DNA from: Obrimoposthia wandeli | Lineage: Eukaryota | Direction: 5' to 3' | Length of the DNA: 64,000 nucleotides | Assembly (NCBI GenBank): GCA_977020255.1 | Contig: CDROCS010006580.1 | Coordinates: 1 to 64,000 of the forward strand | Part shown: positions 1,721-53,056 of the stretch, piece by piece | Numbering within the stretch: position 1 is the stretch's first letter | Layout: the number at the start of each line of letters is the position of its first letter | Program-made: the position numbers and the translations under genes | The notes under the pieces: generated by a model | What the model was told of the DNA's origin: nothing | Database searches by the model: none | The model's input: the letters and a program-made list of their open reading frames with translations, nothing else

Positions 1721-1749
1721 CAATTATATATTAAAATAAAAATAAAAAT

Positions 1750-1869
1750 GAAGAAAGTGAGAGAATAATACAAATTAAACACATTTATTATGTAATTTCA
1801 TAATATCATCATCAAACTTAAGTGAATAACATTTTACAAAGTAGAAAGTCCATTCTTTTATACATTCTT
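1750..1869 (-). pseudogene. POLB: pPolB 3'-end fragment with internal deletion (left-arm copy)
   Basis: Reverse complement of 15001-15130; matches 39294-39356 joined to 39581-39645. Confidence 0.85.
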
Positions 1870-1957
1870 TCGTTTCAACATGACTAAGTTACAACAAGGA
1901 ATTAATAGAAAATTAGTAAAAATATTAATTTATTTGAATATTTGAATGAGAGTTTGA

Positions 1958-4900: not shown

Positions 4901-7900
4901 AAATGAGTTTTTGTTGAATAAATTATAGTTAAGATTGAATGCAAGTATGACGAGCAAGTGATTGATAGTATGAATTTCAATACAAGTAAGTGGAGTTTAG
5001 CAAGTGGATGTAATATTAAAAAAAATAAGAGTGTCGATAGTTTGATTGAATGCAAGTGTAATTTAGACTATAAGTAAATTAAAATAGAGTTTTGTTGGAA
5101 TAAAATTATAGTTAGATTGAATGCAAATTATGACGAGCAAGTGATTGATGGTTTGATTTTTCAATACAAGTGAAGTGGGTTTAACAAGTGAATGTAATTT
5201 TAAAAAATAAAGAGTGTCGATAGTTTGATTGAATGCAAAGTGTAATTTAGACTATAAAGTAAGAATTAAAATAGAGTTTTTGTTGAATAAATTATGGTTA
5301 GATTGAATGCAAGTATGACAGGCAAGTGATTGATAGTATGAATTTCAATACAAGTAAGTGGGTTTAGCAGAGTAGATGTAATTTTAAAAATAAGAGTGTC
5401 GATAAGTTTTTAGTTGAATGCAAGTGTAATTTAGACTATAAGTAAATTAAAATAGAGTTTTTGTTGGATAAATTATAGTTAGATTGAATACAAGTATGAC
5501 AGGCAAGTGATTGATAGTTTTCAATACAAGTAAAATTAGGTTTAACAAGTGAATGTAATTTTAAAATAAAAGTGTCGATAAGTTTGATTGAATGCAAGTG
5601 TAATTTAGACTATAAGTAAATTAAAATAGAGTTTTTTGTTGAATAAATTATAGTTAGATTGAATGCAAGTATGACGAGCAAGTGATTGATAGTTTGAATT
5701 TTCAATACAAGTAAGTGGAGTTTAACAAGTGAATGTAATTTTTAAAAATAAAATTGTCGATAGTTTGATTGAATGCAAGTGTAATTTAGACTATAAGTAG
5801 AATTAAAATAGAGTTTTGTTGAATAAATTATATAGTTAGATTGAATGCAAGTATGACAAACATTGATGATTGATAGTATGAATTTCAATACAAGTAAGTG
5901 TGGTTTATGAAGTGAATGTAATTTTAAAAATAAGAGTGTCGATAGTTTGATTGAATGCAAGTGTAATTTAGACTATAAGTAAATTAAATTAAGTTTTTGT
6001 TGAATAAATTATAGTTAGATTGAATACCAAGTATGACGAGCAAGTGATTGATAGTTTGAATTTTCAATACAAGTAAATTAGGTTTAACAAGTGAATGTAA
6101 TTTTAAAAAATAAGAGTGTCGATAGTTTGATTGAATGCAAAGTGTAATTTAGACTATAAATATAATTTAAAATAGAGTTTTTTGTTGAATAAATTATAGT
6201 TAGATTGAATGCAAGTATGACGAGCAAGTGATTGATAGTATGAATTTCAATACAAGTAAATAGGTTTAGCAAGAGAATGTAATTTTAGAAATAAGCGAGT
6301 CGATAGTATGATTGAATACAAGTGTAATTTAGACTATAAAGTAAATTAAAATAGAGTTTTTGTTGAATAAAATTATAATTTAGATTGAATGCCATTATGA
6401 CGAGCAAGTGATTGATAGTTTGAATTTTCAATACAAGTAAAATTAAGGTTTAACAAGTGAATGTAATTTTAAAAATAAGAGTGTCGATAGTTTGATTGAA
6501 TGCAAGTGTAATTTAGACTATAAGTAAATTAAAATAGAGTTTTTGTTGAATAAATTATAGTTAGATTGAATGAAAGTATGACGAGCAAGTGATTGATAGT
6601 TTGAATTTTCAATACAAGTAAATTAAGGTTTTAACAAGTGAATGTAATTTTAAAAATAAGAGTGTCGATAGTTTGATTGAATGAGAGTGTAATTTAGACT
6701 ATAAGTAAATTAAAATAGAGTTTTTGTTGAATAAATTATAGTTAGATTGAATGCAAGTATGACGAGCAAGTGATTGATAGTATGAATTTCAATACAAGTA
6801 AGTGGGTTTAGCAAGTGAATGTAATTTTAAAAATAAGAGTGTCGATAGTTTGATTGAATGCAAGTGTAATTTAGACTATAAGTAAATTAAAATAGAGTTT
6901 TTGTTGAATAAATTGATTAGATTGAATGAAGTATGACGAGCAAGTGATTGATAGTTTGGATTTTCAATACAAGTAAGTGGGGTTTACAAGTGGATTTAAT
7001 TTTAAAAAATAAGAGTGTCGATAGTTTTGATTGAATGCAAGTGTAATTTAGACTATAAGTAAATTAAAATAGAGTTTTTGTTGAATAAATTATAGTTGAT
7101 TGAATGCAGAATTATGACGAGCAAGTGATTGATAGTATGAATTTCAATACAAGTAAGTGGGTTTAGCAAGTGAATGTAATTTTAAAAATAAGAGTGTCGA
7201 TAGTTTGATTGAATGCAAGGTAATTTAGACTATTATTAAATTAAAATATAATTTTTGTTTAATAAATTATATATAGATTGAATACCAGTACTTGTGAGCA
7301 AGTGATTGATAGTTTGAATTTTCAATACAAGTAGAGTGGGTTTAACAAGTGAATGTAATTTTTAAAAAATAAGAGTGTCGATAGTTTGATTGAATGCAAG
7401 TGTAATTTTAGACTATAGAGTAAAATTAAAATAGAGTTTTTGTTGAATAAATTATAGTTAGATTGAATGCAAGTATGACGAGCAAGTGATTGATAGTACA
7501 ATTTCAATATTTAAAGTAAAGTGGGTTTAGCAAGTGAATGTAATTTTAAAAATAAGAATGTCGATAGTTTGATTGAATACAAGTGTAATTTTAGACTATA
7601 AGTAAATTAAAATAGAGTTTTTTGTTGAATAAATTATAGTTAGATTGAATAAATTATGACGAGCAAGTGATTGATAGTATGAATTTCAATACAAAGTAAG
7701 TGGGTTTTAGCAAGTGAATGTAATTTTTAAAAATAAGAGTGTAGATAGTTTGATTGAATGCAAGTGTAATTTAGACTATAAGTAAATTAAAATAGAGTAT
7801 TTGTTTAATAAATTATAGATTGATTGAATGCAAGTATGACGTGCATGTAATTGATAGTTTGAATTTTTCAATACAAGTAAGTGGAGTTTAACAAGTGAAT

Positions 7901-8145
7901 ATAATTTTAAAAATAAAATTAATCGATATTTTGATTGAATGCAAGTGTAATTTAGACTATAAGTAAATTAAAATAGAGTTTTTGTTGAATAAATTATAGT
8001 TAGATTGAATGCAAGTATGACGAGCAAGTGAGTGATAGTTTGAATTTTCAATACAAGTAAGTGGGTTTAGCAAGTGAATGTAATTTAAAAAATAAGAGTG
8101 TCGATAGTTTGATTGAATGCAAGTGTAATTTAGACTATAAGTAAA
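1958..8145 (+). repeat. ~180-bp satellite array (sat1), about 34 monomers
   Basis: Monomer begins GTGTCGATAGTTTGATTGAATGCAAGTGTAATTTAGACTATAAGTAAATTAAAATAGAG and recurs about every 180 bp (e.g. near 4135, 4315, 4495, 4675). Confidence 0.97.
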
Positions 8146-9935
8146 TATTATGCATATATTAACTTTAATATGTTGTAACTTATTACTTTAATATAATTTT
8201 CAACAAAAACTTCAAGTAGTTTACTTATTAATCATAAGTTTAATGTTTTGTACAATAAATTGACTTGTAAACATAATTTATTTTGATATATTTTCAATTT
8301 AATATGTTGTAAGTTATTACTTTAATATAATTTACAACAAAAACTTCAAGTAGTTTACTTATTAAACATAAGTTTAATGTTTTGTACAATAAATTGACTT
8401 GTAAACATAATTTATTTTGATATATTTTCTATTTAAACTCTATTTGTAGTTATTGCTTTAATATAATTTACAACAAAAAAACTTAAGTAATTTACTTGTA
8501 AGCTACAATATTTATTTGTTGTTGTATATATTTAGTTTAAAATGTTGTAAGTTATTACTTTAATATAATTTCAACAAAAACTTCAAGTAGTATACTTATT
8601 AAACATAAGTTTAATGTTTTGTACAATAAATTGACTTGTAAACATAATTTATTTTGATAATTTTTTCAAATTTAATATGTTGTAAGTTATTACTTTAATA
8701 TAATTTAACAAAAACTTCAAATGGTTACTTATATTAAACATAAGTTTAATGTTTTGTACAATAAATTGACTTATGTAAACATAATTTTTTTGATATATTT
8801 TTTCAATTAATATGTTGTAAGTTATTACTTTAATATAATTTACAACAAAAACTTCCAAGTAATTACTTGTAAACTACAATATTTATTTGTTGTTGTATAT
8901 ATTTAGTTTAAAATGTTGTAAGTTATTACTTTAATATAATTTTCAACAAAACTTCAAGTAGTATACTTATTAAACATAAGTTTAATGTTTTGTACAATAA
9001 ATTGACATGTAAACATAATTTATTTTGATATATTTTCCATTTAATATGTTGTAAGTTATTACTTTAATATAATTTACAACAAAAACTTCAAATAGTTTAC
9101 TTATTAAACATAAGTTTAATGTTTCTTGTCAGTGACTTATAACATAATTTCAATTTAATTGTGAAGTTATATATTTTCAATTTAATATGTTGTAAGTTAT
9201 TACTTCATATAATTTACAACAAAACTTCCAAATAATTTACTTATAAACTACAATATTTATTGTTATTTGTATATATATTTTAGTTTAAAATATTTGTAAG
9301 TTATTACTTTAATATAATTTACAACAAAAACTTCAAGTAGTTTACTTATTAAACATAAGTTTAATGTTTTTGTACAATAAATTGACTTGTAAACATAATT
9401 TATTTTGATATATTTCAATTTAATATATTTGTAAGTTATTACTTTAATATAATTTACAACAAAAACTTCAAATAATTTACTTGTAACCTACAATATTTAT
9501 TTGTTGTTGTATATATTTAGTTTAAAATGTTTACTAAGTTATTACTTTAATATAATTTTCAACAAAAACTTCCAAGTAGTTTACTTATTAAACATAAGTT
9601 TAATGTTTTGTACAATAAATTGACTTGTAAAACATAATTTATTTTGATATATTTTCAATTTAATATGTTGTAGTTATTACTTTAACAATTTACAACCAAA
9701 AACTTCAAATGGTTGCTTATTAAACATAAGTTTAATGTTTTGTACAATAAATTGACTTGTAAACATAATTTATTTTGGTATATTTTCAATTTAATATATT
9801 TGTAAGTTATTACTTTAATATAATTTACAACAAAAACTTCAAGTAATTTACTTGTAAATTACAATATTTATTGTTGTTGTTGTATATATTCAGTTTAAAA
9901 TGTTTGTAAGTTAATACTTTAATATAATTTACAAA
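8146..9935 (-). repeat. Second satellite (sat2): ~134-bp and ~101-bp units, left-arm orientation
   Basis: Repeated AATATGTTGTAAGTTATTACTTTAATATAATTTACAACAAAAACTTCAAGTA followed by one of two alternative tails. Confidence 0.95.
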
Positions 9936-10029
9936 TATCGTAACAACCAAGTTAACTTACCAGATAACTGTGTAGTTAAGGTTATTTATCATTTAGTCTG
10001 AAACAATGAATACCGTCATAATCTACAAT

Positions 10030-11450
10030 GCACGTATAATTTTAATTGTCAACTACAGTAAACTATAATTACTCTTTGTGTACAGTAATAATTTCAATAT
10101 ATTAAAGTAAACATTTACAAAATATAATCTGTTTACAAGTCAATTTTATCTAACCTAAATCCTTAAATTATGACGTTAATAAGTATGAGCTACACTTGAA
10201 GTTTTGTTGATTTGTAAATATATTATGTTTACAATTTATCGTACAAATCATTAATATTATGATTATTAAGTAAACTATTTGAAGTTTTGGTTGTAAATTA
10301 TATTAAAGTAATAACTTACAACATATTAAAGTGAATATATGCAAAATTATATTATGTTTACAAGTCAATTTTCGAATGTCTAGTAAACAAAATTAAATAA
10401 CTCGAAAAAGCATTTACTATTCGAAATAATAAACTTAATAGTACTTTATATTTGAAATTTATGTTATATGCAGTGGGCGGGGTACAGCAACTAACTTTAT
10501 AATTAAAATATTTTTATAGTTTAAGGTTAAATATATACAACAACAAATAAATATTGTAGTTTACAAGTAAATTACTTGAAGTTTTTGTTGTAAATTATAT
10601 TAAAGTAATAACTTACAACATATTAAATAGAAAATATATCAAAATAAATTATGTTTACAAGTCAATTTATTGTACAAAACATTAAACTTATGTTTAATAA
10701 GTAAACTACTTGAAGTTTTTGTTGTAAATTATATTAAAGTAATAACTTACAACATATTAAATTGAAAATATATCAAAATAAATTATGTTTACAAGTCAAT
10801 TTATTGTACAAAACATTAAACTTATGTTTAATAAGTAAACTACTTGAAGTTTTTTTGTTGAAATTATATTAAAGTAATAACTTACAACATTTTAAACTAA
10901 ATATATACAACAACAAATAAATATTGTAGTTTACAAGTAAATTACTTGAAGTTTTTGTTGTAAATTATATTAAAGTAATAACTTACAACATATTAAATAG
11001 AAAATATATCAAAATAAATTATGTTTACAAGTCAATTTATTGTACAAAACATTAAACTTATGTTTAATAAGTAAACTACTTGAAGTTTTTGTTGTAAATT
11101 ATATTAAAGTAATAACTTACAACATATTAAATTGAAAATATATCAAAATAAATTATGTTTACAAGTCAATTTATTGTACAAAACATTAAACTTATGATTA
11201 ATAAGTAAACTACTTGAAGTTTTTGTTGAAAATTATATTAAAATAATAAGTTACAACATATTAAAGTTAATATATGCATAAATATATTATGTTTACAAGT
11301 CAATTTATTGTACAAAACATTAAACTTATGTTTAATAAGTAAACTACTTGAAGTTTTTGTTGAAAATTATATTAAAGTTATAACTTACAACATTTTAAAC
11401 TAAATATATACAACAACAAATAAATATTGTAGTTTACAAGTAAATTTTTG
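10030..11450 (+). repeat. sat2 array in inverted orientation (right arm)
   Basis: Reverse complement of the 8146-9935 units; 10541-10909 is repeated almost exactly by the next ~369 bp. Confidence 0.93.
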
Positions 11451-11743
11451 AATGTCTAGTAAACAAAATTAAATAACTCGAAAAAACATTTACTATTCGA
11501 AATAATAAACTTAATAATACTTTATATTTGAAATTTATGTTATATGCAGTGGGCGGGGTACATCAAATAACTTTATAATTAAAATATTTTTATAGTTAAA
11601 GGTTAAAATCACTTGATAAAAACCACAATAATGTGATAAAGAATATTATTTAACATATAAAATGAATTTTTGAAGAAATAAATTGAATATTCATATTATA
11701 TTAAACGGACAATGGCAAAAAAAAAAATATCAAGTAATTTAAA

Positions 11744-14700
11744 AATCAAACTATCGACACTCTTATTTTAAAAATTACATTCACTTGCTAAACCCAATTA
11801 CTTGTATTGAAATTCAAACTATCAATCACTTGCTCGTCATACTTGCATTCAATCTAACTATAATTTATTCCTTAAAAACTCTATTTTAATTTACTTATAG
11901 TCTAAATTACACTTGTCGTCATTCAATCAAACTATCGGCACTCTTATTTTTAAAATTACATTCACTTGCTAAAACCCACTTACTTGTATTTAAATTCACA
12001 TTCTTGCTGGCCCACTACTTATTAATTCTGACTATAATCACTTGCTCGTCATACTTGCATTCAATCTAACTATAATTTATTCAACAAAAACTCTATTTTA
12101 ATACTTATTTACTTATGAGTCTAATGCAGCACACTCTTATTTTATTACAAGTACTTACACTTCCCGCTAAACCCCTTACTTGTATGGTGAGAAGATTCAA
12201 ACTATCAATCACTTGCCTATACTGTGCTCATTCAATTTAACTACAATTTATCCAACCAAAACTCTATTTTCAATTTCTTATACTCTAAATCTCCCTTGCA
12301 TTCAATCAAACTATCGACACTCTTATTTTTAAATTACATTCAGCATTTAGCTAAACCCACTTGCTTTGTATTAAAGAAAATTCAAACCATATCAATCCAC
12401 TTGCTCGTCATACTTGCATTAATCATAACTTGCATTCAATTTATTCACTTCCACAAAAATTTATTCAACAAAACTCTCTTTTAATTTACTTATAGTCTAA
12501 GTGCAGCATTAAATCAAAATATCTTATTTTAATTGTTCATATAATACCAATTAAATTCATACTATCATCCTTAACCATGTACTTTGACACTCATCATAAT
12601 TTTTAAAAAATTACATTCACTTGTTAAAACTCTATTTTGTTCCCTTTATAGTCTTGTATTGAAAATTCAAACTATGTATCACTCAATCAAACTAGTCATA
12701 CTTGCATTTTTTTTAAAATTACAACTATAATTTATTCAACAAAAACTCTATTTTAATTTACTTATAGTCTAAATTACACTTGCATTCAATCAAACTATCG
12801 CACTCTTATTTTAAAATTACATTCACTTGTTAAACCCACTTACTTGTGAAAATTCAAACTATCAATCACTTGCTAGTCATACTTGCATTCAATCTATAAT
12901 TTATTCAACAAAAACTCTATTTTAATTTACTTATAGTCTAAATTACACTTGCATTCAATCAAACTATCGACACTCTTATTTTTTAAAATTACATTCACTT
13001 GCTAAACCCACTACTTGTGTGAATTTCATACTATCAATCACTTGCTCGTCATACTTGCATACAATCTAACTATAATTTATTCAACAAAAACTCTATTTTA
13101 ATTTACTTATAGTCTAAATTACACTTGTATTCAATCAAACTATCGACACTCTTATTTTTAAAATTACATTCACTTACTTGTATTGAAAATTCAAACTATC
13201 AATCACTTGCTCGTCATACTTGCATTCAATCTAACTATAAAATCTATTGTCCAACAAAAACTGAAAATTCAAACTGCAATCACGCCGTCGTCACTTGCAT
13301 TCAATCTAACTATAATTTATTCAACAAAAACTCTATTTTAATTTACTTATAGTCTAAATTACACTTGCATTCAATCAAACTATCGACTTTCTTATTTTTA
13401 AAATTACATTCACTTGCTAAACCCACTTACTTGTATTGAAATTCAAACTATCAATCACTTGCTCGTCATACTTGCATTCAATCTAACTATAATTTATTCA
13501 ACAAAAACTCTATTTTAATTTACATATAGTCTAAATTACACTTGCATTCAATCAAACTATCGACACTCTATTTTAAAATTACATTCACTTGCTAAACCCA
13601 CTACTTGTATTGAAATTCTACTATCATCACTTGCTCGTCATACTTGCATTCAATTAACTATAATTTATTCAACAAAAACTCTATTTTTAATTTACTTATA
13701 GTCTAAATTCACTTGTATCAAACTAAACTATCGACACTCTTATTTTTTAAAATTACATTCACTTATTAAACCCACTTACTTGTATTGAAAATTCAAACTA
13801 TCAATCGCATACTTGCTCGTCATGCGCACTTGCATTCAATCTAACTATAATTTATTCAACAAAAACTCTATTTTAATTTACTTATAGTCTAAATTACACT
13901 TGCATTCAATCAAACTATCGACACTCTTATTTTTAAAATTATTCGCTTGATTAAACCCACTTACTTGTATTGAAAATTCATATCAATCACTTGCTCGTCA
14001 TACTTGCATTCAATCTAACTATAATTTATTCAACAAAAACTCTATTTTAATTTACTTATAGTCTAAATTACACTTGCATTCAATCAAACTATCGACACTC
14101 TTATTTTTTTAAAAATTACATTCACTTGCTAAACCCACTTACTTGTATTGAAATTCATTCTATCAATCACTTGCTCGTCATACTTGCATTCAATCTAACT
14201 ATAATTTATTCAACAAAAACTCTATTTTAATTTACTTATAGTCTAAATTACACTTGCATTCAATCAAACTATCGACACTCTTATTTTAAATTACATTCGC
14301 TTGTTAAACCCACTTACTTGTATTGAAATTCATACTATCAATCACTTGCTCGTCATACTTGCATTCAATCTAACTATAATTTATTCAACAAAAACTCTAT
14401 TTTAATTTACTTATAGTCTAAATTACACTTGCATTCAATCAAACTATCGACACTCTTATTTTTTTAAAATTACATTCTCTTGTTAACCCACTTACTTGGT
14501 CAATTCAAACTATCAATCACTTGCTCGTCATACTTGCATTCAATCTAACTATAATTTATTCAACAAAAACTCTATTTTTAATTTACTTATAGTCTAAGCT
14601 TATTCATTGCTCGTCATTGCGACACTCTTATTTTTAAAATTACATTCGCTTGACACTTAAACCCACTTACTTGTATTGAAAATTCAAACTATCAATCACT

Positions 14701-14840
14701 TGCTCGTCATACTTGCATTCAATCTAACTATAATTTATTCAACAAAAACTCTATTTTAATTTACTTATAGTCTAAATTACACTTGCATTCAATCAAACTA
14801 TCGACACTCTTATTTTAAAAATTACATTCACTTGCTAAGA
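11744..14840 (-). repeat. sat1 array in inverted orientation, about 17 monomers
   Basis: Repeated CACTTGCATTCAATCAAACTATCGACACTCTTATTTT, the reverse complement of sat1; noisy or degenerate at ~11900-12700. Confidence 0.95.
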
Positions 14841-15000
14841 CTCTTACTTGTAAATGACATTCATACTTGCATGCATAATTTTATTCATTTACATTCATTC
14901 TACCTCTCATTTTATTCAAACTCTCATTCAAATATTCAAATAAATTAATATTTTTACTAATTTTCTATTAATTCCGTTGTAACTTAGTCGTTGAAACGAA

Positions 15001-15262
15001 AAGAATGTATAAAGAATGGACTTTCTTACTTTGTAAATGTTATTCACTTAAGTTTGATGATGATATTATGAAATTACATAATAAATGTGTTTAATTTTGT
15101 ATTATTCTCTGACTTCTTTCTTATTTTATTTTTTATTTTAATATATAATTGAAGTTATTTAAAGAAATTTTATCATAATTCTATAAATGTGAAAGCCTAG
15201 GAAAAACTTTGATCTAAATTTCACATAAAATAGTATGTGTGTGATTACGTAATACATTCTTA
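15001..15262 (+). pseudogene. POLB: pPolB 3'-end fragment plus inner part of Polinton TIR (right-arm copy)
   Basis: 15001-15063 matches 39294-39356 and 15065 onward matches 39581 onward. AGCCTAGGAAAAACTTTGATCTAAATTTCACATA...GATTACGTAATACATTC then matches the inner TIR. Confidence 0.88.
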
Positions 15263-15750
15263 ATTGGTTTAAAAGCGTACATGGAAAAAATTTTTTCAGA
15301 CAAATTATTATTTGAAGTCGAACATTATCGTTTATTTATATTTATTTCCCTACAACTCACAAGAACTCAGTACATGCGTAAGAAGCAGAAATGTTCAAAG
15401 TGAGTTTATCTTAGTCGAGATTGAGGGCGAAAATGCCCAAAGATGAACATTATCCAATCAGCATCATCGTGTCTCTAGCATCTAATGGGATTCCAGCGAT
15501 GGGTGAACAAGAAACATTAATCATCTCGGGATAACTAAATACTATTCAATGGCCTATGTCAATAGGTTGCTTGGAATTTCAATGAGATTTCCTAGAAACA
15601 GTATTAACAATTTTATCTGATACATCCATATTTTCTTTTTGTACATTCCATTTTTTTAATTCAAAAATCGTTGGATTATAACGACTGATAATGGCTAAAA
15701 AGAAAATGGTTCAAAAATATTCGTCTATTTGTGATAGTTGATCGGTTATT

Positions 15751-15829
15751 ATGTCGGGAACGCGACGAGGACTTGTTGCTCCACAAAACACTTTTCTGGA
15801 TAATATTATTCGGCGATGTAACGCACAAA
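15751..15829 (+). CDS. eag: EAG-family (KCNH1/5, Kv10-like) potassium channel, coding exon 1 (PAS-cap)
   Basis: Translates MSGTRRGLVAPQNTFLDNIIRRCNAQ, matching the EAG N-terminal RRGLVAPQNTFLxNIIRR signature. 79 bp ending in phase 1 at a GTACGT donor (15830). Confidence 0.93.
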
Positions 15830-21569: not shown

Positions 21570-24160
21570 AATTTATTGTAAACGACAGTAAACTATCAAT
21601 TACTTTTTATGTAATGGAATATTACAGTAATAACTTACAACATATTAAACTAAATATATACAAAATATATTATGTTTACAAGTTAATTTATTGATCAAAT
21701 CATTAAAATTATGATTAATAAGTAAAGTACTTGAAGTTGTTTGTTGTAAATTATATTACAGTAATAACTTACAACATATTAAATTGAAAATATGCAAAAT
21801 TATATTATGTTTACAAGTCAATGTATTGTACAAAACATTAATATTATGATTATTAAGTAAACTACATGAAGTTTTTGTTGTAAATTATATTACAGTAATA
21901 ACTTACAACATATTAAACTGAATATATGCAACAACAAATATTATGTTTACAAGTCAATTTATTGTACAAATCATTAATATTATGATTATTAAGTAAACTA
22001 CTTGAAGTTTTTGTTGTAGATTATATTGAAGTAATAACTTACAGCATATGAAAGTGAATATATGCAAAAATATATTATGTTTACAAGTCAATTTTCGAAT
22101 GTAAAGTAAACAAAATTAAATAACTCGAAAGAAATTTTAATATTTGAAAGAATAAACTTAATAGAAACTTATATTTGGAATTTATATTATATGCAGTCTG
22201 CGTGGTACTTTAGCTACTAACTTTATGATTAAAATATTTTTATAGTTTAAAGATAAAATCACTTGATACAAAACCATAATAATTTGGCAAAGAAATATTG
22301 TTTAATATATAAAATGAATTTTTGAAGAAATAAATTGAATATTCATATTATATTAACAAGACAATGGCAAAAATATCAAGTAATTTAATTATATATATTT
22401 TTATGCGAAGTTTATTATTATACTAATTAACGTCCTAAGTTACAATTTCAGTGATACTCTATAACTCTTATTCATTTACACATTCGGTATTACTAACTTT
22501 TTTAGTTACTCTTTTTATCACTTAGTATCATTTTAAACCATAATATCTAACTCTTATTAACTATTATTCACTTGATACTCTTAATTTTATTATTTTATAA
22601 AATAAATAAAAAAAAGATTATTTAGAAAGTTGAATAATATATTGAGGTATTAAGATGATAATCTAATATGTTTGAAGAAGTTGTTTTATTTGCATATTAA
22701 ACAATGTGATTAAAGATTTGGTATTATAATTTAACGACAAAGCTTTCAGTTTGTTTTCATTTATTTTCATGTCTTTGAAAATAATTTTACAATATTCAAT
22801 ACACAGAGAATAAAATTGTTTGTTGAGTTAATTTACTAAATTTGTATATTTATAAATATATTTTAGAATAGTTAAAAAGAGAAACGAATAATGATAATTT
22901 CAAATTATATTTATGAATATATTTGTATAATCAAGTTATTTGAAAATAAAGAATTCAAATTTATCTAATTATTTAAAAATATTTAAATTATGGAATGTTA
23001 TTAAACGAGATAAGACATTTTAATTATTTAATTGCATGAGTATATATGAACTGTTAACTTTAGAGCAAGTACATTAAGGTAAAAGATGTGAAAATAAAAT
23101 ATGAAAGTTCACATCTTAATTATTATAATTTCATCAGATTGTTACATCATCTTCATTGATTGATAGTATTAATTTAATAATTAGCTAGTACTCACTTACA
23201 GTTTTACATTCACTTATAAAGACTCTTACTTGTATTCGTATTCGCTTGCATCCATACTTGCATTTATTTACATTCATTCTAACTCTCATTATTCAAACTA
23301 GCATTCAAATTCATTGATATTTTTACTAATTTTCATTCATACCTTCAAACTTAGTGTTTTTTCTATTAATCTCGCTGTAACTTAGTCGTTCTAACTTTTA
23401 ATATTATTCAGTATCACTGCTTCTTATAGTTGCTTACTTGTTATTAATCTAACTGTCACTTTATATAAATTGTATTCATACGAATTCTCTTTTTTAATTT
23501 ACTTAGAGTATAAATTACACTCGCATTCAATCATACTCTCGACACTCTTATTATTTTTTTTCCAAATACATTCACTTGCTAAGACTCTTACTTGTATTTG
23601 CATTCTCTTGCATTCATACTTTCATTCATTTACATTCATTCTAACTCTCATTATTCAAACTAGCACTAAAATTCATTAATATTTTTACTAATTTTCGTTC
23701 ATACTTGCAATAGTATTCTTTCTTACTTGTACTTGTAACTGCATTCATTCATACTTGTACTTAAATTCATTGTTAATTGTACTTGCTTTATTTACATTTA
23801 CACTTGTATTAATTCATACAATCGATAATTAATTTTATGTGTTCTTACAAGACATTTTAATTATATTTTAGAAAGTCGAATAATAAATCGAAATACTAAG
23901 TTGATAATCGAATATATACATAATTTGATTTGTTTACATATAAAATAATATAACTAAATATTTTGTATTTTAATTTATAAAAAAAACTTTCAGTAACTTT
24001 GAATAACATGACGTCTTTCAAACATTCATAAGAAAAACTGTCAGCAAAGATGGTTTAGAACCACATAACTTTTAAACATTCCTGGGTTGAGCTGGGCAAG
24101 TGCTAATGTTAAAACATAAAGTTGAACTGATGCAGGATCCTGAAATATACATGATTTCTG
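21570..24160 (+). mobile_element. Older degenerate Polinton derivative with a few sat2 units, the spacer, 1-2 sat1-like monomers and a PolB fragment
   Basis: 21570-22090 is homologous to 10030-10380; 22098-22380 to 11455-11740; 23200-23395 to 14820-14992. 23470-23600 resembles one sat1 monomer. Confidence 0.75.
24009..24159 (+). pseudogene. POLB: pPolB internal fragment
   Basis: Aligns to 38132-38291 (GATGGTTTAGAACCAC...CATTCCTGGGTTGAG...GTTGAACTGATGCAGGATCCTGAAAT) with small deletions. Confidence 0.88.
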
Positions 24161-25379
24161 AAAAAAATTTACTTCAATATCATATTAAAAAAATGTTGTT
24201 TGATGTTTTATTTATTTAATAAATAATTTAAAATTAATATGAATAGCAATACAATTGAAATATAAAATTCTTGGCATTGTTTTAATACATTCATTGTAAA
24301 TAATAAAACGCGCAAACTTTAGAGATATTTGTAAAGTTTCAATCAGTTTTGACAATAATTATATTGATCTTTCGGATATACGTCAATAGATCATATGAAA
24401 ATACTTACAGTATGTTGATTATTTATTAAAAATGGTTGATTATTGCAATTTTTAAATTCAATAAATTAGATATATTATTCTTTTATTATATAACTATATT
24501 TTGATATTTATGTTTTAAAATCAAATTTGTTTAATTACATCAATAAAAACAATGAAAACTTTGCGTAAATTTATATATTCTCAAAATTATTTTTTAAAGT
24601 TTTGATTAAACATTTTGCTTAGTTTTTTTTATATTTAATTAAAATTATATTTCAATATTATATTTTTAAAAATTTTGATGTAAATTTTTTTTTACTTAAT
24701 ATTTATTTAAAATAATGATACTTTAATATTTTATTTTTAAAAATTCCGTTAAATTAAAATTTGTTAAACTGTAACAAAAATTACCAAAATAATTTACCAC
24801 AAATTTAAAATTAATGTTTTTAAAAATTTTTGAATATTAAAAGTACTTTTTTTTCACCAAGTATGCATGACATATAATTTAAGTTATTTAAAGAAATTTT
24901 ACAGGTTTTTAAATATTAATAGGAATGCACAACATATGAGAATACATAAAATACACTAGTCCAATTGCAAAAAATAACTCAATGTGAAAATTGTAAATTG
25001 CCTTAAAAAGTAAAAAGACATGAATAACATTTATTTCTTGAAACATACAAAACCAATATATATTAAAACAGGTATGTTAAACTCGTTTACCACCACATGC
25101 CCCATCAAATATTAAATTTTAACCTGAGTTCCATAAAAAAAATAAAAGGAATCAATTAATATTTTTAAACAATATTAAATTAATATTAAAAAAAGAGAAT
25201 ACAAAATGTTAGCCATGTGGAAAAAATACATACAAAGTTTCAAAGCTGTTTTATCAAATTTAAATAAGATTAACAAAATTAACAAAATTTATTGTGGCTT
25301 TAGATATCTCGAAAATTGTTAACTTTTACAGAAAATTTTAGATTATGTCCGATTTTTAAAACTTTAGACCACAATAATT

Positions 25380-29207: not shown

Positions 29208-29399
29208 ATAAAACCCAAAATTTACTATTAAACATTTTACTTGCATCAAAACTTTCAAAATAGTTCTTTCTTCAATAGCAATAGAATGGCCAAAAATTCC
29301 ATGCTTTTCATGCCTAAGCGACCATGGCTGTACATAATCTATATCTAAAAATAAAACAAATGTATCCTATATACATGTATATATTTTCCTATTTATTAG

Positions 29400-32724: not shown

Positions 32725-33895
32725 AGTAGGTACTTTGATGGAGTCTAGACCACTGGGGGGGGGTCCCCCTTGTGTGCGCACACCAAGTTAAAGGGTGTCA
32801 CACCATAGAAATGTCACACCATAAGGTGTCAAACCATAAGGGTATATGTTGCCTCACCATAGGGGTGTCTTGCCACACCATAAGGGTCTGGCTCAGAAAG
32901 GTTATGAAGGTTTGAAGGTATGGTCGTGACCGTCTATGATCGGCCAACATACCCAAGGGGTTGTGGTCGTCCATAGGTCAAAGGGTCGGACTTAGTTTGG
33001 ACTTGAAACTTTGAAGGTATAATTAAGGTCAACTATGGTCGGCCAACATACCCAAGGGGTTGTGGTCGTCCATAGGTCAAAGGGTCGGACTCAGTTTTGA
33101 CTTGAAATCTCTTGAAGGTATAATTGAGGTCAACTATGGTTGACCAACACATCTAAAGCGGGTCATGGACGTCCATAATTCAAAGGGTCAAGGTCAGTTT
33201 TGACTTGAAACTTTGAAGGTATAATTAAGGTCAACTATGGTTGGCCATCACATTTAAAGGGTTGTGGTCGTCCATAGGTGAAAGGGTCGGGCTAAAAACA
33301 AAGTCAAGTTTAAAATATCAAGGTTTTAGTACATGGTTGGAATCATCTTTAGAAGGTGAATTCACCCATAAAGTATGGTCGGTCATATATGAAGGGGTCG
33401 GGATATAGACCAAATCAAGTTTTAAATGTCAAAGTTTGAATACATGGTTGTAATCATCTTTAGAAGACGAATTCATCCATATAGGTATGGTCGTCCATAG
33501 ATGAAGGGTTAAAAAATATTGGAATTTCATAGTTTCAAGTACATGGTTGTATTCGTCAACATATTACGAGTTTAATCATGTAAAAATTTTTTGGTCGTTC
33601 ACAAGGTAAGGGTCAGATTTGGCATAAGTTAAGGAATTATATAGTAATTAATCAATTATTCTATGTGAAAGTTCACTCTTATCAGTTAAGGAATGTATTA
33701 CGTAATAACACACACACTATTATATGTGAAAATTTAAGCTAAAGTTCACTCTTATCAGTTAAAGAATGTATTACGTAATAATACGCACACTATTCTATGT
33801 GAAAATTTAGATCAAAGTTTTTTCCAGGCTTATGCATCTAAAGAAATATGGTAAAATTTATTTAAATAACATAAATTATATATTAAAATCAAATA
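32725..33895 (+). repeat. Left TIR, with internal ~100-bp (x4), ~115-bp and ~62-bp tandem units
   Basis: Reverse-complementary to 39650-40738, e.g. CCATAAGGGTCTGGCTCAGAAAG vs CTTTCTGAGCCAGACCCTTATGG and GGCTTATGCATCTAAAGAAATATGGTAAA vs TTTACCATATTTCTTTAGATGCATAAGCC. Confidence 0.92.
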
Positions 33896-33911
33896 TCATT
33901 AATGAATATAT

Positions 33912-34364
33912 TTATATACAATTTATATAATCAATACATAGAGAAAAACATTTCAAATAAGCACAATGTTTTCCGTGTTTTCTAAACAGACATCGAATAT
34001 TTTTTGGCATTTTCTTTAAATTTTTGAAACTTTTATTATAATTCACAATTCTCAAATTTGGAAACATTCGTTTCACTAAATTAATTTTCTTTCCATCAAT
34101 AGAATCCATAACATAGAATATTGTTTCAACATCATCAATATGAATATCAGAGCTTTCACCTTCAAACCAGGATAACTGATGATGATGATTTATCAAATAT
34201 AGATTTTTTCTTTTAACTGTAAATGATAAACTACTCCATGGTATTTGATTTTTAAACACGTAATGAAATGGACAAGTCATATCATTCACATACATTATAC
34301 ATAATTTCTTTGGAATATATTGTCCATTATTATCAATAAAACATTCTAAATCAATAAAAGCCAT
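33912..34364 (-). CDS. Polinton accessory protein (~150 aa from MAFIDLECF); possible DEDD/DnaQ-like nuclease fold with C-terminal C/H motif
   Basis: The ORF track gives 175 aa from a non-ATG start at 34439; the first ATG is at 34364. It has an N-terminal FIDLECF acidic motif, HHHQLSWFEG and C-terminal CLFRKHGKHCA. The fold assignment is inference. Confidence 0.6.
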   Translation of the reverse strand: MAFIDLECFIDNNGQYIPKKLCIMYVNDMTCPFHYVFKNQIPWSSLSFTVKRKNLYLINHHHQLSWFEGESSDIHIDDVETIFYVMDSIDGKKINLVKRMFPNLRIVNYNKSFKNLKKMPKNIRCLFRKHGKHCAYLKCFSLCIDYINCI

Positions 34365-34414
34365 TTGAAAAATTAAATGAAATACTATAATGATATATTT
34401 GTTTATACTTAAAA

Positions 34415-34753
34415 TTATTTGTGTTGAAGTTTCAACCATAAAAGACTCAGAGGTCCGCAGTTTTTAGTTAATGGATTCTGACATTTTACTCGATTATAGT
34501 AGACTGGAATGTTTTCTTTTTCAAGTGTAGACACCAACTTTGAAGGATAATAGAATCCAAAAGGATCAAACACTCGAATCTCGAATCTGTCAACGAATAT
34601 TGCTATCCAATGTTCGCCTGGTAGATTTGAAGTATGAGTATTGATAATGTAGCCTCCGGGTTTTAATGATGGAATTTTATCCAATGAATATACTCCATTA
34701 AATTTGTTATTCAATAATATATTTCCGGATTTATAAATTTCTAAAGTACTAAT
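34415..34753 (-). CDS. PRO: Adenain-like cysteine protease (maturation protease); no in-frame ATG
   Basis: Motifs GVYSLDKIP, INT...LPGEHWIAI, VFDPFG and Q.....NCG give the His/Asp/Gln/Cys set. The open frame extends to ATT at 34753 (ISTLEIY...), preceded by TAA. Confidence 0.85.
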   Translation of the reverse strand: MSTLEIYKSGNILLNNKFNGVYSLDKIPSLKPGGYIINTHTSNLPGEHWIAIFVDRFEIRVFDPFGFYYPSKLVSTLEKENIPVYYNRVKCQNPLTKNCGPLSLLWLKLQHK

Positions 34754-34787
34754 TTAAATAAAGAATATAATATAAAATAAGCTTACT

Positions 34788-36008
34788 TCATACAATCACA
34801 GTTTTATTTTTCGTAATCTCAATTTCGGAATCAAATATTCCGTAAATCAAAACACTTGTTGGAACAACCAAAGGAGAATTAAATCTAATTTCAAGTCTTA
34901 AATTACCAGTTTTAGGCACTTGAGTAGTGTTTATATCAAAATCTAGTGCTAAAAGAAAAGTGAAAATCGAACTTCCTGATTTAAAATCAGAAAATCTGAT
35001 ACCGTTATTCAAGTTTTTATCTAAAATATTCATATTTCGAATAATTGACTGCATATATGCTAATGAAAAATTGTTATTATCTAGATTATAAGTTTCTCGA
35101 TAATCTGTATTTCTAGCTAATGATATTGTTGAAACATTAAATGTATTGAACGTAGAAGATTTAACTTTGTATTCCTTACCACCCTGAGGTGTATCTTTGA
35201 AAGCAATCAAAATGAACTTGGGTAAACGATAGTCTCCGAATATTTGATCTTTATTAAGTTCTAAAGAACCCTGAGGAATTGAATATGTTACTAACTGAGT
35301 TTTTCTAATTGGGTAAACTGCATTCTGACATTGCAAACCTAACTGATGTCCAATAATTACTGAAGAATCAACTTTTACTCTTCTAACATACAATCTAGCA
35401 TCTAGAATTTGAATAATTGGTTTTGAAGTTTCTGAATAGAGCGAAAAATTATGCTGATTTCTCATAAATCTCAAATGAACATTAATCCATGGAATCAAAT
35501 ATTTTGGTTGATCAAAGAAATCTAATCTAATTGAATTACACAATGAAAATATTTTAGATTCACTAATCCATTGTTTACGATTTTCTGCATCATCATCATA
35601 CCCGGAACATTCAAGGTTAGTATACTTGGTATCACTACTAAAATTCAAAAGAGTATCGAATATAGCCTTATGAGTATACGTTCCATTTCCTCCTTCAACC
35701 TTTACATTATTAAGTGTTAGAATAACATCTCTAAACAAAGTTTGAAACAGGTAATTCTCTGGAGTTACATCGCTATCTTTCATTAAATCAGTACCATCTT
35801 CATTTACAACTTTTAATTTAATATTTAACAAAGTATCATTCAAATCCAGATAATCTTCTTCAGATGCATGAATATTAAATTCTATGTCATTTAAATTTCC
35901 ACCAGTAATTGAATTGTTTGGAAATATTTCTTCAAAACTTGAATTTTCAATCACTACTTGAGGTAGTGGTCTATCGAAAATACACAATTCAGATTTTATA
36001 CTAGTCAT
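34788..36008 (-). CDS. PY: Major capsid protein (double jelly-roll), 406 aa, intact ORF
   Basis: N-terminal KSELCIFDRPLPQVVIE, IEFNI...EDYLDLNDTLL, LRLDFFDQPKYLIP, RLYVRRVKV, LPKFILIAF and C-terminal GNLRLEIRF are typical of Polinton MCP. Confidence 0.9.
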   Translation of the reverse strand: MTSIKSELCIFDRPLPQVVIENSSFEEIFPNNSITGGNLNDIEFNIHASEEDYLDLNDTLLNIKLKVVNEDGTDLMKDSDVTPENYLFQTLFRDVILTLNNVKVEGGNGTYTHKAIFDTLLNFSSDTKYTNLECSGYDDDAENRKQWISESKIFSLCNSIRLDFFDQPKYLIPWINVHLRFMRNQHNFSLYSETSKPIIQILDARLYVRRVKVDSSVIIGHQLGLQCQNAVYPIRKTQLVTYSIPQGSLELNKDQIFGDYRLPKFILIAFKDTPQGGKEYKVKSSTFNTFNVSTISLARNTDYRETYNLDNNNFSLAYMQSIIRNMNILDKNLNNGIRFSDFKSGSSIFTFLLALDFDINTTQVPKTGNLRLEIRFNSPLVVPTSVLIYGIFDSEIEITKNKTVIV

Positions 36009-36010
36009 TT

Positions 36011-36406
36011 TTAAAAAATAGTACCTTTAAGACGTTTGTTTATACTATTTAAATTATTTCTTTTACGTTTAAGACCCTTTCCATTTTGTTCAACACAATT
36101 TGCGACTTTATTTAAACTCTCAACAGCATTATTTTTTAATTTTGGAATCAAAGTTTTGACTTCTTTGATTGTATTTTCTTTGAGAGATGAAATTATGTTT
36201 TTTGGATTTGTTAACGCAGTTCCTACCGTTTCCCCAATTGCATTGGCAGCACTTGTAGCTGCTGATAAACCAGCTTTTTTAATAAATGGAATAGCTAAAC
36301 TAGAAATAGTTTGAAACCAACCAGATCCATATTGTTTACCAATGAAATAGGGAAGTTCACCGCCCTGTTGACCTTTGCTATAAAATTTTATAATTGATGT
36401 ATTCAT
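36011..36406 (-). CDS. Small basic putative virion core/membrane-active protein, 131 aa
   Basis: Lies between mCP and MCP. QQGGELPYF.G.QYGSGWFQTISSLAIPFIKK is followed by an Ala-rich helix and a basic C-terminus (KGLKRKR). Confidence 0.7.
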   Translation of the reverse strand: MNTSIIKFYSKGQQGGELPYFIGKQYGSGWFQTISSLAIPFIKKAGLSAATSAANAIGETVGTALTNPKNIISSLKENTIKEVKTLIPKLKNNAVESLNKVANCVEQNGKGLKRKRNNLNSINKRLKGTIF

Positions 36407-36443
36407 TTTATATATTTTTATATTTTAAATATATTTATATTGT

Positions 36444-37457
36444 TTATACTTTACGTAAATGAAGAGTTAAACTAGTTTTTGCTCCATATGAAAATGGAAT
36501 TAGATTACCAGCATCATCACGTATATTTACCTCGATTCTATTAATACTTGAATCTCTCATTTTCAAGTACATTGGATTATCAATTTTAACATTTACTACA
36601 TCTCCATATCGATATTTTAATGATTTTAACCAAATAGACTTTAACAGTGGAACATAATCAGATCCTACTAAGACAGAATCTGTTAAACTAGTATAAATAT
36701 ACATTTGATTATATGAGCTAGAAAGTGTTGGTTCTTGAAAACCTTTAATTCGTTTCTCAAAGAAAACATTATTTAAACCTAATAAAGATGCAAGTTTTTC
36801 GTCAAATAAAACTGATTTTACATTTTTCTTTATAAAAATATCAAATAATCCGTTTGAATCTATATTACAGCTTTTAAAAATTTCATTACATTTACTGGCT
36901 ATAATATTACATAATGAAGAACTATCTTGTATCAAATAATTTTGATTAAATTTTATTTCGTATTCATATTCAGCTAAAGAATAAATTGTAATTCTCATTT
37001 TAGCATGAATATTTTTATTTATGTCAACAATTTCATCACTTGTTATAACATGACTAGAAAATTTTTGTATTTCATTAAAACTTATAATTTTTGATTCTTC
37101 TAAAGTTTCGAATTTTAACAACATTCGATGAATACTGTTAATTGTACTTATTTCTAATTTTTGATCCTTTGTAATTTTGAAATTGAAAACATTATTTAAA
37201 TTATTAAAAATTAATCCATTTAAAATTGCAAAAGATACATCGAAAGTTTTCATTTCTATCTTTTCCGTTTTATAAAGTATTTTCGAATTAGTTTGTATTG
37301 TTAAAGGAGTATAATTAAATACAAATTCAGTCAAGGCAACCTCCCATTCACCATCTAAATTTAGAGAGTTTTCCCAATCTACAGTAAATTGATTGGCTGT
37401 ATTGCTAGGTTGAGTACTCGGACAACTATTACTAGGTAAAATAATATATTTTGACAT
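36444..37457 (-). CDS. PX: Minor capsid (penton-like, single jelly-roll) protein, 337 aa, intact ORF
   Basis: N-terminal YIILPSNS...NTANQF.V......LDGEWEVALTE and C-terminal MYIYTSL...VLVGSDYVPLL...IEVNIRDDAG..IPF.YG....LHLRK match Polinton mCP motifs. Confidence 0.88.
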   Translation of the reverse strand: MSKYIILPSNSCPSTQPSNTANQFTVDWENSLNLDGEWEVALTEFVFNYTPLTIQTNSKILYKTEKIEMKTFDVSFAILNGLIFNNLNNVFNFKITKDQKLEISTINSIHRMLLKFETLEESKIISFNEIQKFSSHVITSDEIVDINKNIHAKMRITIYSLAEYEYEIKFNQNYLIQDSSSLCNIIASKCNEIFKSCNIDSNGLFDIFIKKNVKSVLFDEKLASLLGLNNVFFEKRIKGFQEPTLSSSYNQMYIYTSLTDSVLVGSDYVPLLKSIWLKSLKYRYGDVVNVKIDNPMYLKMRDSSINRIEVNIRDDAGNLIPFSYGAKTSLTLHLRKV

Positions 37458-37490
37458 TATTCAATTTGAGAAGCGAATATACAAGAAGGT

Positions 37491-37967
37491 TCAGAGTATC
37501 TGTGCCACTTTACGTAATATTGTAATATTAATATTCTTACCACGACCTTTAGTTTCTAAAATTTCTTGTATTCGATATAGTTTAGGTTTATCAATTAATT
37601 GTAACTCTTGTTTATAAAATTTTCCTTTGATGATGACGTTATCAATATCTTTTAAAATATACATTATTGGATTTTGTTTATAATTAATATCATGAATTTG
37701 AAAAACCTCATCACTCCAATTTTGATTAAAATTTTTAATAAATGGACTAATACTTATTTTAGAAATTCGAACATAATCATCAATTTTACACTTGGCCTTA
37801 CTCTTTTTGACTTTTGAATTTTGACTCAACAAAATATCAAATTCATTTTTCTTATTTATATCTACAGGTTTTAAATCATTTAATCCTCTATGTTTAGAAT
37901 GATTATAAACATAAATAATTTTCGGTAAAACTTCAATCCATTTCTTATTACCCTGTTTAGTAAAATA
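37491..37967 (-). pseudogene. INT: Retroviral-like integrase, C-terminal part only (catalytic N-terminal region deleted)
   Basis: Open from 37967: YFTKQGNKKWIEVLPKIIYVYNHSKHRG...KPVDI, then VRISK...NWSDEVFQI...YILKD...IKGKFYKQELQ and a degenerate chromo-like tail; TGA immediately upstream. Confidence 0.88.
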
Positions 37968-37985
37968 TCATTAAATGTCCTCTAG

Positions 37986-39597
37986 AATAAGTTAAGTTTA
38001 CCAGTAAAATGGAATGATAAAATCACAGACACTGAATATCAAAAAGCACAAGATGTTTGGAAAATAACCAATTGTAGAAATATGTTGGATTATATGTTAG
38101 TTTACTTAAAGACTGACGTATATTTATTAGCTGACGTGTTTCAAACATTCAGAAGAAAAGCTCTCAGTGAAGATGGTTTAGAACCACTTAACTTTTTTAG
38201 CATTCCTGGGTTGAGTTGGGCAAGTGCTCTAAAAATGTTAAAACATAAGGTTGAACTGATGCAGGATCCTGAAATGTACAACATGATTTCTTCGGGTATA
38301 CGAGGAGGAATGACATTTGTCAATAAGCATCATGTAGTCGCTGATGAAGAAACAAGTCTTTTATATATAGATGTTAATAATTTATATGGATGGGCTCTTG
38401 ATCAACCTTTACCAAAAGGAGATTTTGAATGGATTCTTGATGATATAAAATTAAACGAAATATTGCATGAAATGAAAAATGTGAACATGGAACATATTGA
38501 ATATGGTTATGTTATGGAAGTAGACTTGGTAATACCAGAAAACCTTCATGACTTTTTAGATGATCTTCCTATAGCTCCAGAAAAGAAATGTCCACCTGGT
38601 AAAAAAGTTGAAAAACTTTTAATGACGCATTCGCCAAAAAGTCATTATGTTATTCATTGGAGACTATTGCAGATGTATGTTAGTTTAGGAGCAGTGGTAA
38701 CAATTATTCATCGAGCAGTAAAATTCTCTCAGGCTAAGATATTCGTAGAATATATAGAATATAATTCAGAAATGAGATCACAAGCAACGAATAAATGTGA
38801 CAAAGATTTTTATAAACTTAAAAATCTTAGTTTGTATGGAAAGACCGTTGAAAATGTTAAGAAACGGTTGAATCTTCGCATCTGCACTAGTTCTACAAAA
38901 TTAATTACATATACTAGCAAACCTAAGTTTCAACGAACAATTGAAATTCATGATAATTTAATAGCTGTTTTATTAAGAAAAGACTTTATTTGTCTCGATC
39001 GACCAAATTATATAGGCCAAGCTGTACTAGACCTTAGCAAATTACGAATGTATACTCTTCAGTATCATGATTTGCAAATATATCGTAATTTATTCAATTG
39101 TTCAATTAATATAGTTGCCGGTGATACCGACTCATTCTTTTTGGAATGTAAAAAACGTTAATTTAAGAAAACAGTTGTTACCAAAAATGATTGCAGATGG
39201 ATTATTAGATACGTCAAATTATAATGTGAATGATCCATTATATTCTAATAAATTTAATAGTAAAATAGGTTTATTTAAAGATGAATCGGAAGGAAGAATG
39301 TATAAAGAATGGATTTTCTTACTTTGTAAATGTTATTCACTTAAGTTTGAAGATGACTTTGAAAATAATAAAGCAAAAGGAGTAAATCTTAAGGGATCAA
39401 CGGTTGTACATCAAACATATTTAGACGTGTATGAAAACGGTAATGCATATACTATACCACAAAAGAAGTTTGGAACAATAAATCATCAACTATACACAAT
39501 CATAACACAAAAGACTGCTCTCAGCTCATCAGATGACAAACGCTATTGGATCGAGAAAAATAGAAGCCGCGCTTATGGACATTATGAAATTACATAA
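37986..39597 (+). pseudogene. POLB: Protein-primed family B DNA polymerase, 5'-truncated, with one frameshift
   Basis: YLKTDVYLLADVFQTFR, IRGGMTF, motif A YIDVNNLYGWA, motif B KLKNLSLYGKT, motif C AGDTDS, and terminal DDKRY...AYGHY. The frame shifts in the A-run at ~39147-39152 (ORFs 38082-39161 and 39115-39597). Confidence 0.93.
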
Positions 39598-39649
39598 TAA
39601 ATGTGTTTAATTTTGTATTATTCTCTGACTTCTTTCTTATTTATTTTTG

Positions 39650-40738
39650 ATTTAATATAAATTTACCATATTTCTTTAGATGCATAAGCCTGGGAAAAAC
39701 TTTGTACTGAATTTTCACATAGAATAGTGTGTGTATGATTACGTAATACATTCCTTAACTGATAAGAGTGAACTTTAGCTTAAATTTTCACATAGAATAG
39801 TGTGTGTGTTATTAAAAACCACATTCCTTAACTGATAAGAGTGAACTTTAAACTAAATTTTCACATAGAATAGGATATGTATGATTACGTAATACATTCC
39901 TTAACTGATAAGAGTGAACTTTCACATAGAATAATTGATTGAATACTATATAATTTCTTAATTTATGCCAAATCTGACCCTTAACTTGTGGACGACCATA
40001 AAATTTTTACATGAATAAACTCGTAATATGTTGACGAATACAACCATGTACTTGAAACTATGAAATTCCAACTTTTTTAACCCTTCATCTATGGACGACC
40101 ATACCTATATGGATGAATTCGTCTTCTAAAGATGATTACAACCATGTATTCAAACCTTGACATTTAAAACTTGATTTGGTCTATAGCTCGACCCTTTGAT
40201 TTATGGACAGTCATACTTTATGGGTGACTTCGTCTTCTAAAGATGATTACAACCATGTACTAAAACCTTGATATTTTAAACTTGACTTTGTTTTTAGCCC
40301 GACCCTTTCACCTATGGACGACCACAAATCTTTAGATGTGATGACCAACCATAGTTGACCTTAATTATACCTTCAAAGTTTCAAGTCAAAACTGACCTTG
40401 ACCCTTTGATTTATGGACGACCACAACCCTTTAGATATGTTGGTTGACCATAGACGGTCATGGCCATACCTTAAAACCTTCATGTCAAAACTGACCTTGA
40501 CCCTTTGAATTATGGACGACCACAACCCTTTAGTGGTATACCAAAGAAGGTTGGAGACTAAGCCACTGAACCCTTCCCCCTTCCCCCCTCCCCCCTATCA
40601 TAAACTTTCTGAGCCAGACCCTTATGGTGTGGCAAGATACCCTTATGGTGTGACACCCTTATGTTGAAAATCCTTTAACATTGTGTGCGCACAAGGGGTG
40701 GGGGGTCAAGTGGCTTAGACTCCATCCTTCTACCTACT
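39650..40738 (-). repeat. Right TIR, with an extra ~115-bp block (C-tracts and an inverted copy of the terminus)
   Basis: Reverse complement of the left TIR, except that ~40480-40598 has no counterpart on the left. Confidence 0.92.
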
Positions 40739-52825: not shown

Positions 52826-53056
52826 ACAACAGCTTCTTGTTGGCGAGCGCTAAGATCCTCGACTACCCGATCGTGTACTGTAATGACGCCTTCCACAAGC
52901 TGACTGGCTTCAGCAAAGCCGAGATCATGCAGAAAGGAGGCCTTTGTACCTTCCTCCAAGGCGAGTCGACCACCAAAGACAGTGTCAGGGCCATCGAGAC
53001 TGCCATGGAGAAGCAGGAGGTTGATCAAACGGAAACTGTTCTCTACAAGAAGAATA
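52826..53056 (+). CDS. eag: EAG-family channel coding exon 2 (PAS domain)
   Basis: CTACAG acceptor; phase 1 fits exon 1; reads NSFLLASAKILDYPIVYCNDAFHKLTGFSKAEIMQK...VLYKKN. 231 bp, ending at a GTGAGT donor (53057). Confidence 0.95.

Follow-up and report, generated by a model that had tools for sequence, protein, structure and literature searches.

Two satellites within non-autonomous Polinton derivatives of Obrimoposthia wandeli, and a truncated intronic copy in their likely stepwise birth

The first formation of a satellite monomer is rarely visible, and its precursors are usually lost. A 64,000-nucleotide stretch of the Obrimoposthia wandeli genome (contig CDROCS010006580.1 of assembly GCA_977020255.1, positions 1 to 64,000; hereafter the window) raises the question of whether such a precursor has survived next to its products: it carries a foldback element filled with arrays of two satellites, sat1 and sat2, and, farther downstream, a small element with a few units of related sequence. 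The original prediction, made from the letters of the window, took the latter for the unamplified progenitor of both satellites, which would have grown by local amplification from sequence that may once have been housed in a Polinton's central region. The analysis presented here leads us to a different reading, to which we assign a probability of roughly 0.75: sat1 and sat2 lie inside non-autonomous Polinton derivatives genome-wide and were likely born there in steps, starting from a non-coding module present in single copy, and the small element is a truncated older member of that family whose three sat2 units were likely imported from a younger relative.

The element at 21483-24902 and its surroundings

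The element first delimited at 21570-24160 is real but runs farther, from about 21483 to 24902, where matches to its relatives start and stop; its left flank is unique. It is a truncated, gene-less, non-autonomous Polinton derivative with an older type of body, referred to below as tier A, and it sits inside a predicted intron. It has no termini and no 6-bp TSD left; its TIR is reduced to 30 bp of the inner part (24872..24902; 97% identical to 15143-15172 and 1700-1729, 94% to 33851-33881), AGT-type ends being absent, and where a Polinton would carry pPolB, integrase, ATPase, capsid and protease it holds only a 151-bp broken PolB fragment (24009..24159; 87% identical to 38132-38291, E 5e-50). 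TIR subtypes in the family also differ in their internal repeats, of 99/111/73 bp as against 26/52/78 bp (819-1510 and the TIRs of loci L061-L080).

The remaining parts, like the element itself, are read on the forward strand. A "head" segment (21572..21618; 91-100% identical to tier-A copies) precedes the first sat2 half and leads into a sat2 array (21619..22094) of 3.5 copies of 134-136 bp with four unit starts, in which the derived junction is present three times. It is followed by a spacer (22095..22388) that falls into the tier-A group of the spacer tree (100/98) and is shared with the foldback (22097-22388 vs. 11450-11742, 85% identity, E 7e-93), by a segment retained in the older family and deleted from the array-bearing lineages (22389..22808), as comparison with relatives and joints of 22385-22388 to 22809-22812 in the read contigs of one sample show, and by the non-coding marker segment m2 (22809..23203), which was used for a tree and an AU test. 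The sat1 flank occurs twice: its first copy (23204..23364) is 87.5% identical to 23567-23723 and, over 23204-23355, 78% to 14822-14988, and its second (23599..23723), equivalent to the end of the foldback array, adjoins a single sat1-like core with pre-duplication flanks (23468..23598, placed by sequence match, junction scoring and tree), core and second flank together (23468-23696) matching 14732-14965 at 81%. An old internal duplicate of 22621-22750 (23867..24008, ~75% identity) precedes the PolB fragment. The pieces originally listed (diverged sat2 units, spacer, sat1-like monomer with flank, PolB fragment) are thus all present, and the term "unamplified" holds for sat1 only, sat2 having already reached 3.5 units. 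A coding remnant sought in seven copies of the module yielded no stop-free frame clearly above shuffles (longest stretch 94 codons vs. a shuffle maximum of 90), and all 15 tblastx matches listed for the module fell in the TIR.

The foldback (819..15266, from repeat and self-comparison) comprises a left TIR, a PolB piece of 63 bp, inverted arms that carry the sat1 and sat2 arrays, and a truncated right TIR. A tandem-repeat scan places 34 sat1 units of 181 bp on the reverse strand of the left arm (1958..8146), and self-comparison with unit counts places about 15-17 on the forward strand of the right arm (11744..14867), while two inverted sat2 arrays of ~14 and 9 units occupy the center (8146..11451). 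The ~34 and ~17 monomers previously assigned to the two satellites are therefore both sat1 counts, for the left and right arm. The PolB piece differs between the elements, that of the foldback corresponding to 39294-39356 and that of the 21483-24902 copy to 38132-38291.

Both elements flank or interrupt a predicted eag/KCNH channel gene. Its exon 1 (15751..15829, forward strand, from splice ends and frame) can be joined in uninterrupted frame, the intron ends being GT..AG, to exon 2 (52826..53056, forward strand), which encodes a PAS domain (KCNH1 match, E 7e-21); the 21483-24902 copy lies in the predicted intron 1 (15830-52825, 37 kb), together with an internally deleted Polinton of 8,014 bp with a 6-bp TSD (32725..40738) that is without 4.5-5.3 kb of central coding sequence, and the foldback stops ~490 bp short of the start codon. 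In two relatives (L019 and L020) the junction of module and PolB falls at 37986-37995, within ~30 bp of the 8-kb element's deletion breakpoint (~37968). Elsewhere in the window, a perfect 335-bp tandem duplication at 28538-29209, where read contig depth is ~2x that of the flank, is probably real, and a frame of 137 codons (54487-54900), Cys-rich at its end and lacking a Pfam match, is what we take to be probably a transposon fragment.

Satellite arrays and their carriers across the genome

The AT-rich, 1.35-Gb assembly contains the sat1 core 20,577 times in exact form and the arm junction 3,014 times, which contradicts amplification confined to this locus: with thousands of arms genome-wide, amplification is a property of a mobile family and not of the window. 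The head-to-tail arrangement of the monomers, the kilobase-scale arrays and this high copy number place the repeats among satellites, a membership read from sequence, and every array whose ends are visible is bounded by element sequence. In a contig-order sample confined to exact sat1 matches, which diverged or unassembled free arrays would escape (the first 100 of the 20,577, grouped by eye into 30 clusters), 30 of 30 clusters lie inside Polinton derivatives: 18 have an arm junction within 1.3 kb, and the other 12, once fetched, all have TIRs. Among similarity-ranked loci, a TIR and the 63-bp PolB piece next to a sat1 array were found in 19 of 20 ranked by sat1 and 17 of 20 ranked by sat2 (36/40); the three sat2-ranked misses showed TIR and PolB after extension, giving 39/40 with L039 left unextended. 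The proposed residence of the satellites in Polinton derivatives is thereby supported, and even the longest sat2 region observed, ~14 kb in one element, is still within TIRs.

The array carriers are foldbacks, with inverted arms of 1,177 bp (99% identical, L025), 2,109 bp (91%, L029) and 1,366 bp (96%, L085) in addition to the element at 819-15266; the 21483-24902 copy is not a foldback. AGTAGG termini and 6-bp target duplications mark the complete elements, the latter present in five of the six relatives with both ends located (L012, L013, L025, L029 and L085, but not L100), of which L012 and L013 are complete tier-A elements. As regards a targeting of Polintons by these elements, Polinton coding sequence lies within 1 kb of 12 of 56 element ends, a raw count from which we draw no claim.

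Two further arrangements were observed. L135-L136 (G000:C1873) holds a third, independent tandem array, which arose from the module that likely gave sat1 and sat2: its 517-bp unit, built from the spacer, a stretch of the middle segment and 121 bp of PolB, is repeated ~21 times, the copies being 98% alike. At L137 (G000:C1627), an element of 4.2 kb is repeated head to tail in its entirety, TIR included. Together, the 517-bp array and the tandem whole elements indicate that the array-making process recurs.

A graded series and the placement of the intronic copy

The non-repetitive middle of the 21483-24902 copy has 3,532 genome candidates, the scored full-length ones being 86-91% identical to it, and a tight pattern for its spacer junction finds at least 149 exact matches; the supposed progenitor is thus one member of a large family. 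From top-ranked matches we assigned its relatives to tiers, tier A being 20 copies with the older body, of which 13 have PolB downstream of the module and 9 the very PolB piece found at 24009-24159; Polinton TIR sequence lies no farther than 10 kb from 19 of the 20. The sat2 junction is absent from all 20 tier-A copies and present in all 20 of tier B and all 40 array loci, and the sat1 junction is found in 0/20, 11/20 and 38/40, respectively. The 21483-24902 copy has three sat2 junctions and no sat1 junction, and its three derived junctions against none in the 20 relatives speak against progenitor status.

The tiers form a graded series. The 134-bp sat2 unit is missing from tier A. There its two halves stand apart, A after the head and B, in 9 of the 20 copies, 100-255 bp upstream of A. 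One locus, L134, which could itself be a chimera, has a long duplicated sat2 unit adjoining a short one, and in the sat2 precursor a T-rich short motif is common to both ends of the filler. In tier B the segment 22389-22808 is gone, and sat2 arrays are accompanied by one to ~13 early sat1 units, L101 and L106 still having one; early sat1 arrays retain both unique flanks. The youngest elements are foldbacks in which a sat1 half is changed and the arrays are long. According to the m2 tree, tier B, the array lineage, forms a clade (98/85) within tier A, sister to L016 (95/84), with the proviso that the trees are midpoint-rooted, the markers short (115-400 bp) and several bootstraps not settled; mutual m2 identity is 92.3% in tier A vs. 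96.7% in tier B. Nested deletions, junctions and diversity together suggest an order of events from no arrays to sat2, then to duplicated sat1 and finally to long foldback arrays. We propose that sat2 arose when a [B half, filler, head, A half] segment was duplicated in tandem and the filler then dropped out at a short shared sequence, and that sat1 would have started with a ~177-bp duplication between two similar short sites.

The 21483-24902 copy is placed differently by its different parts. Its sat1-like unit has the ancestral flank and no array junction and groups with single-unit relatives at moderate support (91/77). A common clade for its three sat2 units is rejected (p-AU 0.0098), and with it an independent rebirth of sat2 within the copy; each unit is instead partnered in the tree by tier-B units of the same position. 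The sat2 units thus nest among array units once the copy is included in the monomer phylogeny, an outcome that the original prediction had itself named as speaking for a decayed array and not an ancestor. Compared with L081, a locus picked for its similarity, the sat2 units differ by 4.1% and the flanks by 9.2% (Fisher p 0.01). The copy is therefore likely a chimera, formed by recombination or gene conversion, that took its sat2 units from a younger relative.

The same stepwise birth could also have left the 21483-24902 copy as a surviving early intermediate, in which sat2 had been born, sat1 had not, and the middle segment was still present. Its layout does fit between tiers A and B, its sat2 units are without the variants of the foldback subclade, and its spacer is compatible with a sister position to the array lineage (p-AU 0.49). 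On m2, however, the same grouping is rejected (p-AU 0.005), and the copy has 2 of 22 tier-B states, inside the range of 0-5 seen in the other tier-A copies. The layout is also rare: a search returned three pattern matches, two of them true, against 149 older-type junctions, although the patterns are unequal in sensitivity. The match at L133 arose by chance, and the sole other true copy, L134, which lends the intermediate a second example, does not group with the 21483-24902 copy in either tree. We consider survival of an intermediate improbable; whether a chimera or a relic early branch, the copy is not the progenitor.

Source of the module, mechanism and known parallels

The parent family has the core genes of a Polinton, namely pPolB, integrase, an A32-like ATPase and an adenovirus-type protease (PF03175, E 7e-21; PF00665, E 6e-10; PF04665, E 3e-6; PF00770, E 0.003, the last under the cut-off). 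A 412-aa ORF without a Pfam or PDB sequence match is one that we label a putative capsid by its size and position. The genome's Polinton load is very heavy, with 36,908 candidates for the N-terminal part of PolB, 144 of them scored, and at least two Polinton families. The original suggestion that the module may derive from the central region missing in the 8-kb element did not hold up: in 20 family copies (L061-L080, two of them incomplete across a gap) that region encodes the PolB N-terminus, an ORF with a TATA-binding-protein (TBP) domain, the A32-like ATPase, a 138-codon ORF and the integrase, and none of the 20 central stretches contains sat1, sat2, the spacer or their junctions. The best standard BLAST matches there are AT-rich scraps of 13-55 bp, and relaxed matches (~60% identity) are equalled or beaten by shuffled queries. 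The second Polinton family (65-70% identical) was likewise rejected as a source, the coding stretches examined, including the PolB-to-integrase region (L125), giving no module matches. The module was likely captured as non-coding DNA. The TBP-domain ORF (PF00352, E 3e-10; L068:2113-2730) stands head to head with PolB in full-length copies, is present in all 20 central stretches and also in the second family (40-50%), and has seven database homologues.

That the module lies outside both autonomous families examined, and hence came from elsewhere, would also agree with free satellite arrays having come first and been captured by Polinton ends, the single-unit copies then being decayed arrays; arrays far outnumber single units, and the trees are without an outgroup root. 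Yet the single-unit copies are without either array junction, have unique flanks on both sides and the segment deleted in the array lineages, and are more diverse than the array copies (the 92.3% vs. 96.7% at m2), and no free array turned up among the 30 contig-order clusters or the 40 ranked loci, all of which makes an arrays-first origin very improbable. Hardly credible at all is the 21483-24902 copy as unamplified progenitor with local amplification and a module from the deleted central region, for which the shared spacer and flank, the single sat1 unit and proximity within the window could be cited, in the face of the large older family, the empty central stretches, the nested sat2 units with their derived junctions, genome-wide amplification, the AU rejections and a foldback closer to relatives on other contigs (94-97%) than to this copy (81-86%).

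In the stepwise birth that we favor, the abundant full-length Polintons would have supplied polymerase and integrase in trans for copying and inserting the derivatives; Polinton ends, and 6-bp TSDs on five of six complete relatives, point to such movement by the full-length copies' integrase. Candidate sources of the arrays and inverted arms are template slips, fold-back copying in replication, and host unequal exchange or repair. We would venture a broader picture, tentatively and with the odds against it as a whole, from what we regard as a likeness of the derivatives to defective viral genomes: gene-less derivatives may be the counterpart, in an endogenous virus, of defective interfering genomes and at once a satellite factory, in which the helper's protein-primed polymerase slips, folds back and mints 134-, 181- and 517-bp monomers and whole 4.2-kb units, integration spreads them, and all birth stages survive in one genome.

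The closest model is Tetris, with its TIR-220 repeats, in Drosophila virilis, a foldback whose internal tandem repeats grow to kilobase-size arrays and whose monomer is traced, in the available part of the source, to a within-element duplication (PMC4079207). Like Tetris, the carriers described here are non-autonomous foldbacks with arrays expanding inside the element. Tetris is characterized there by 8-10 bp TSDs, a tentative Mutator assignment, three complete copies and no known driver, whereas the present family has Polinton ends, 6-bp TSDs, abundant full-length helpers, two monomers co-amplified and surviving pre-birth stages. The non-autonomous Cg_HINE Helentrons of Crassostrea gigas similarly carry satellite-like arrays as central repeats dispersed genome-wide, with two repeat types in a row in exceptional cases; their carrier is a Helentron and not a Polinton, and the inverted-arm layout is absent from the portion of the Cg_HINE description available (PMC7492417).

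Satellites with similarity to Polintons are already on record as LmiSat34-299 (PMC4935994) and CgiSat52 (PMC8268682). In the sections available these are database similarity notes, whereas sat1 and sat2 are non-coding cargo and not Polinton coding sequence; a closer parallel is the 517-bp array, whose unit includes a PolB piece. Maverick/Polinton elements are defined, in the accessible part of the source, by TIRs, AGT-type ends, a 6-bp TSD, pPolB, integrase, ATPase and protease, features that the parent family shares, whereas the satellite carriers have kept PolB scraps as the sole remains of its genes; copies here number thousands, against a vertebrate median of eight (PMC8097293). A 2022 review of transposon-born repeats mentions neither Maverick nor Polinton in its main text (PMC9659126), and a planarian genome preprint reports Maverick expansion, the word "satellite" being absent from the main text (10.64898/2025.12.11.693146). 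Our literature search, with most subscription papers and Repbase outside it, found no paper describing stepwise satellite birth in non-autonomous Polintons.

The 21483-24902 copy has no special status of its own. Across thousands of insertions with scorable junctions, this genome retains pre-birth copies, a long-unit intermediate and arrays both short and long, so that duplication plus deletion at short shared sequences can be put to a direct test. Polintons are thereby added to the known carriers in which tandem repeats are generated and dispersed.
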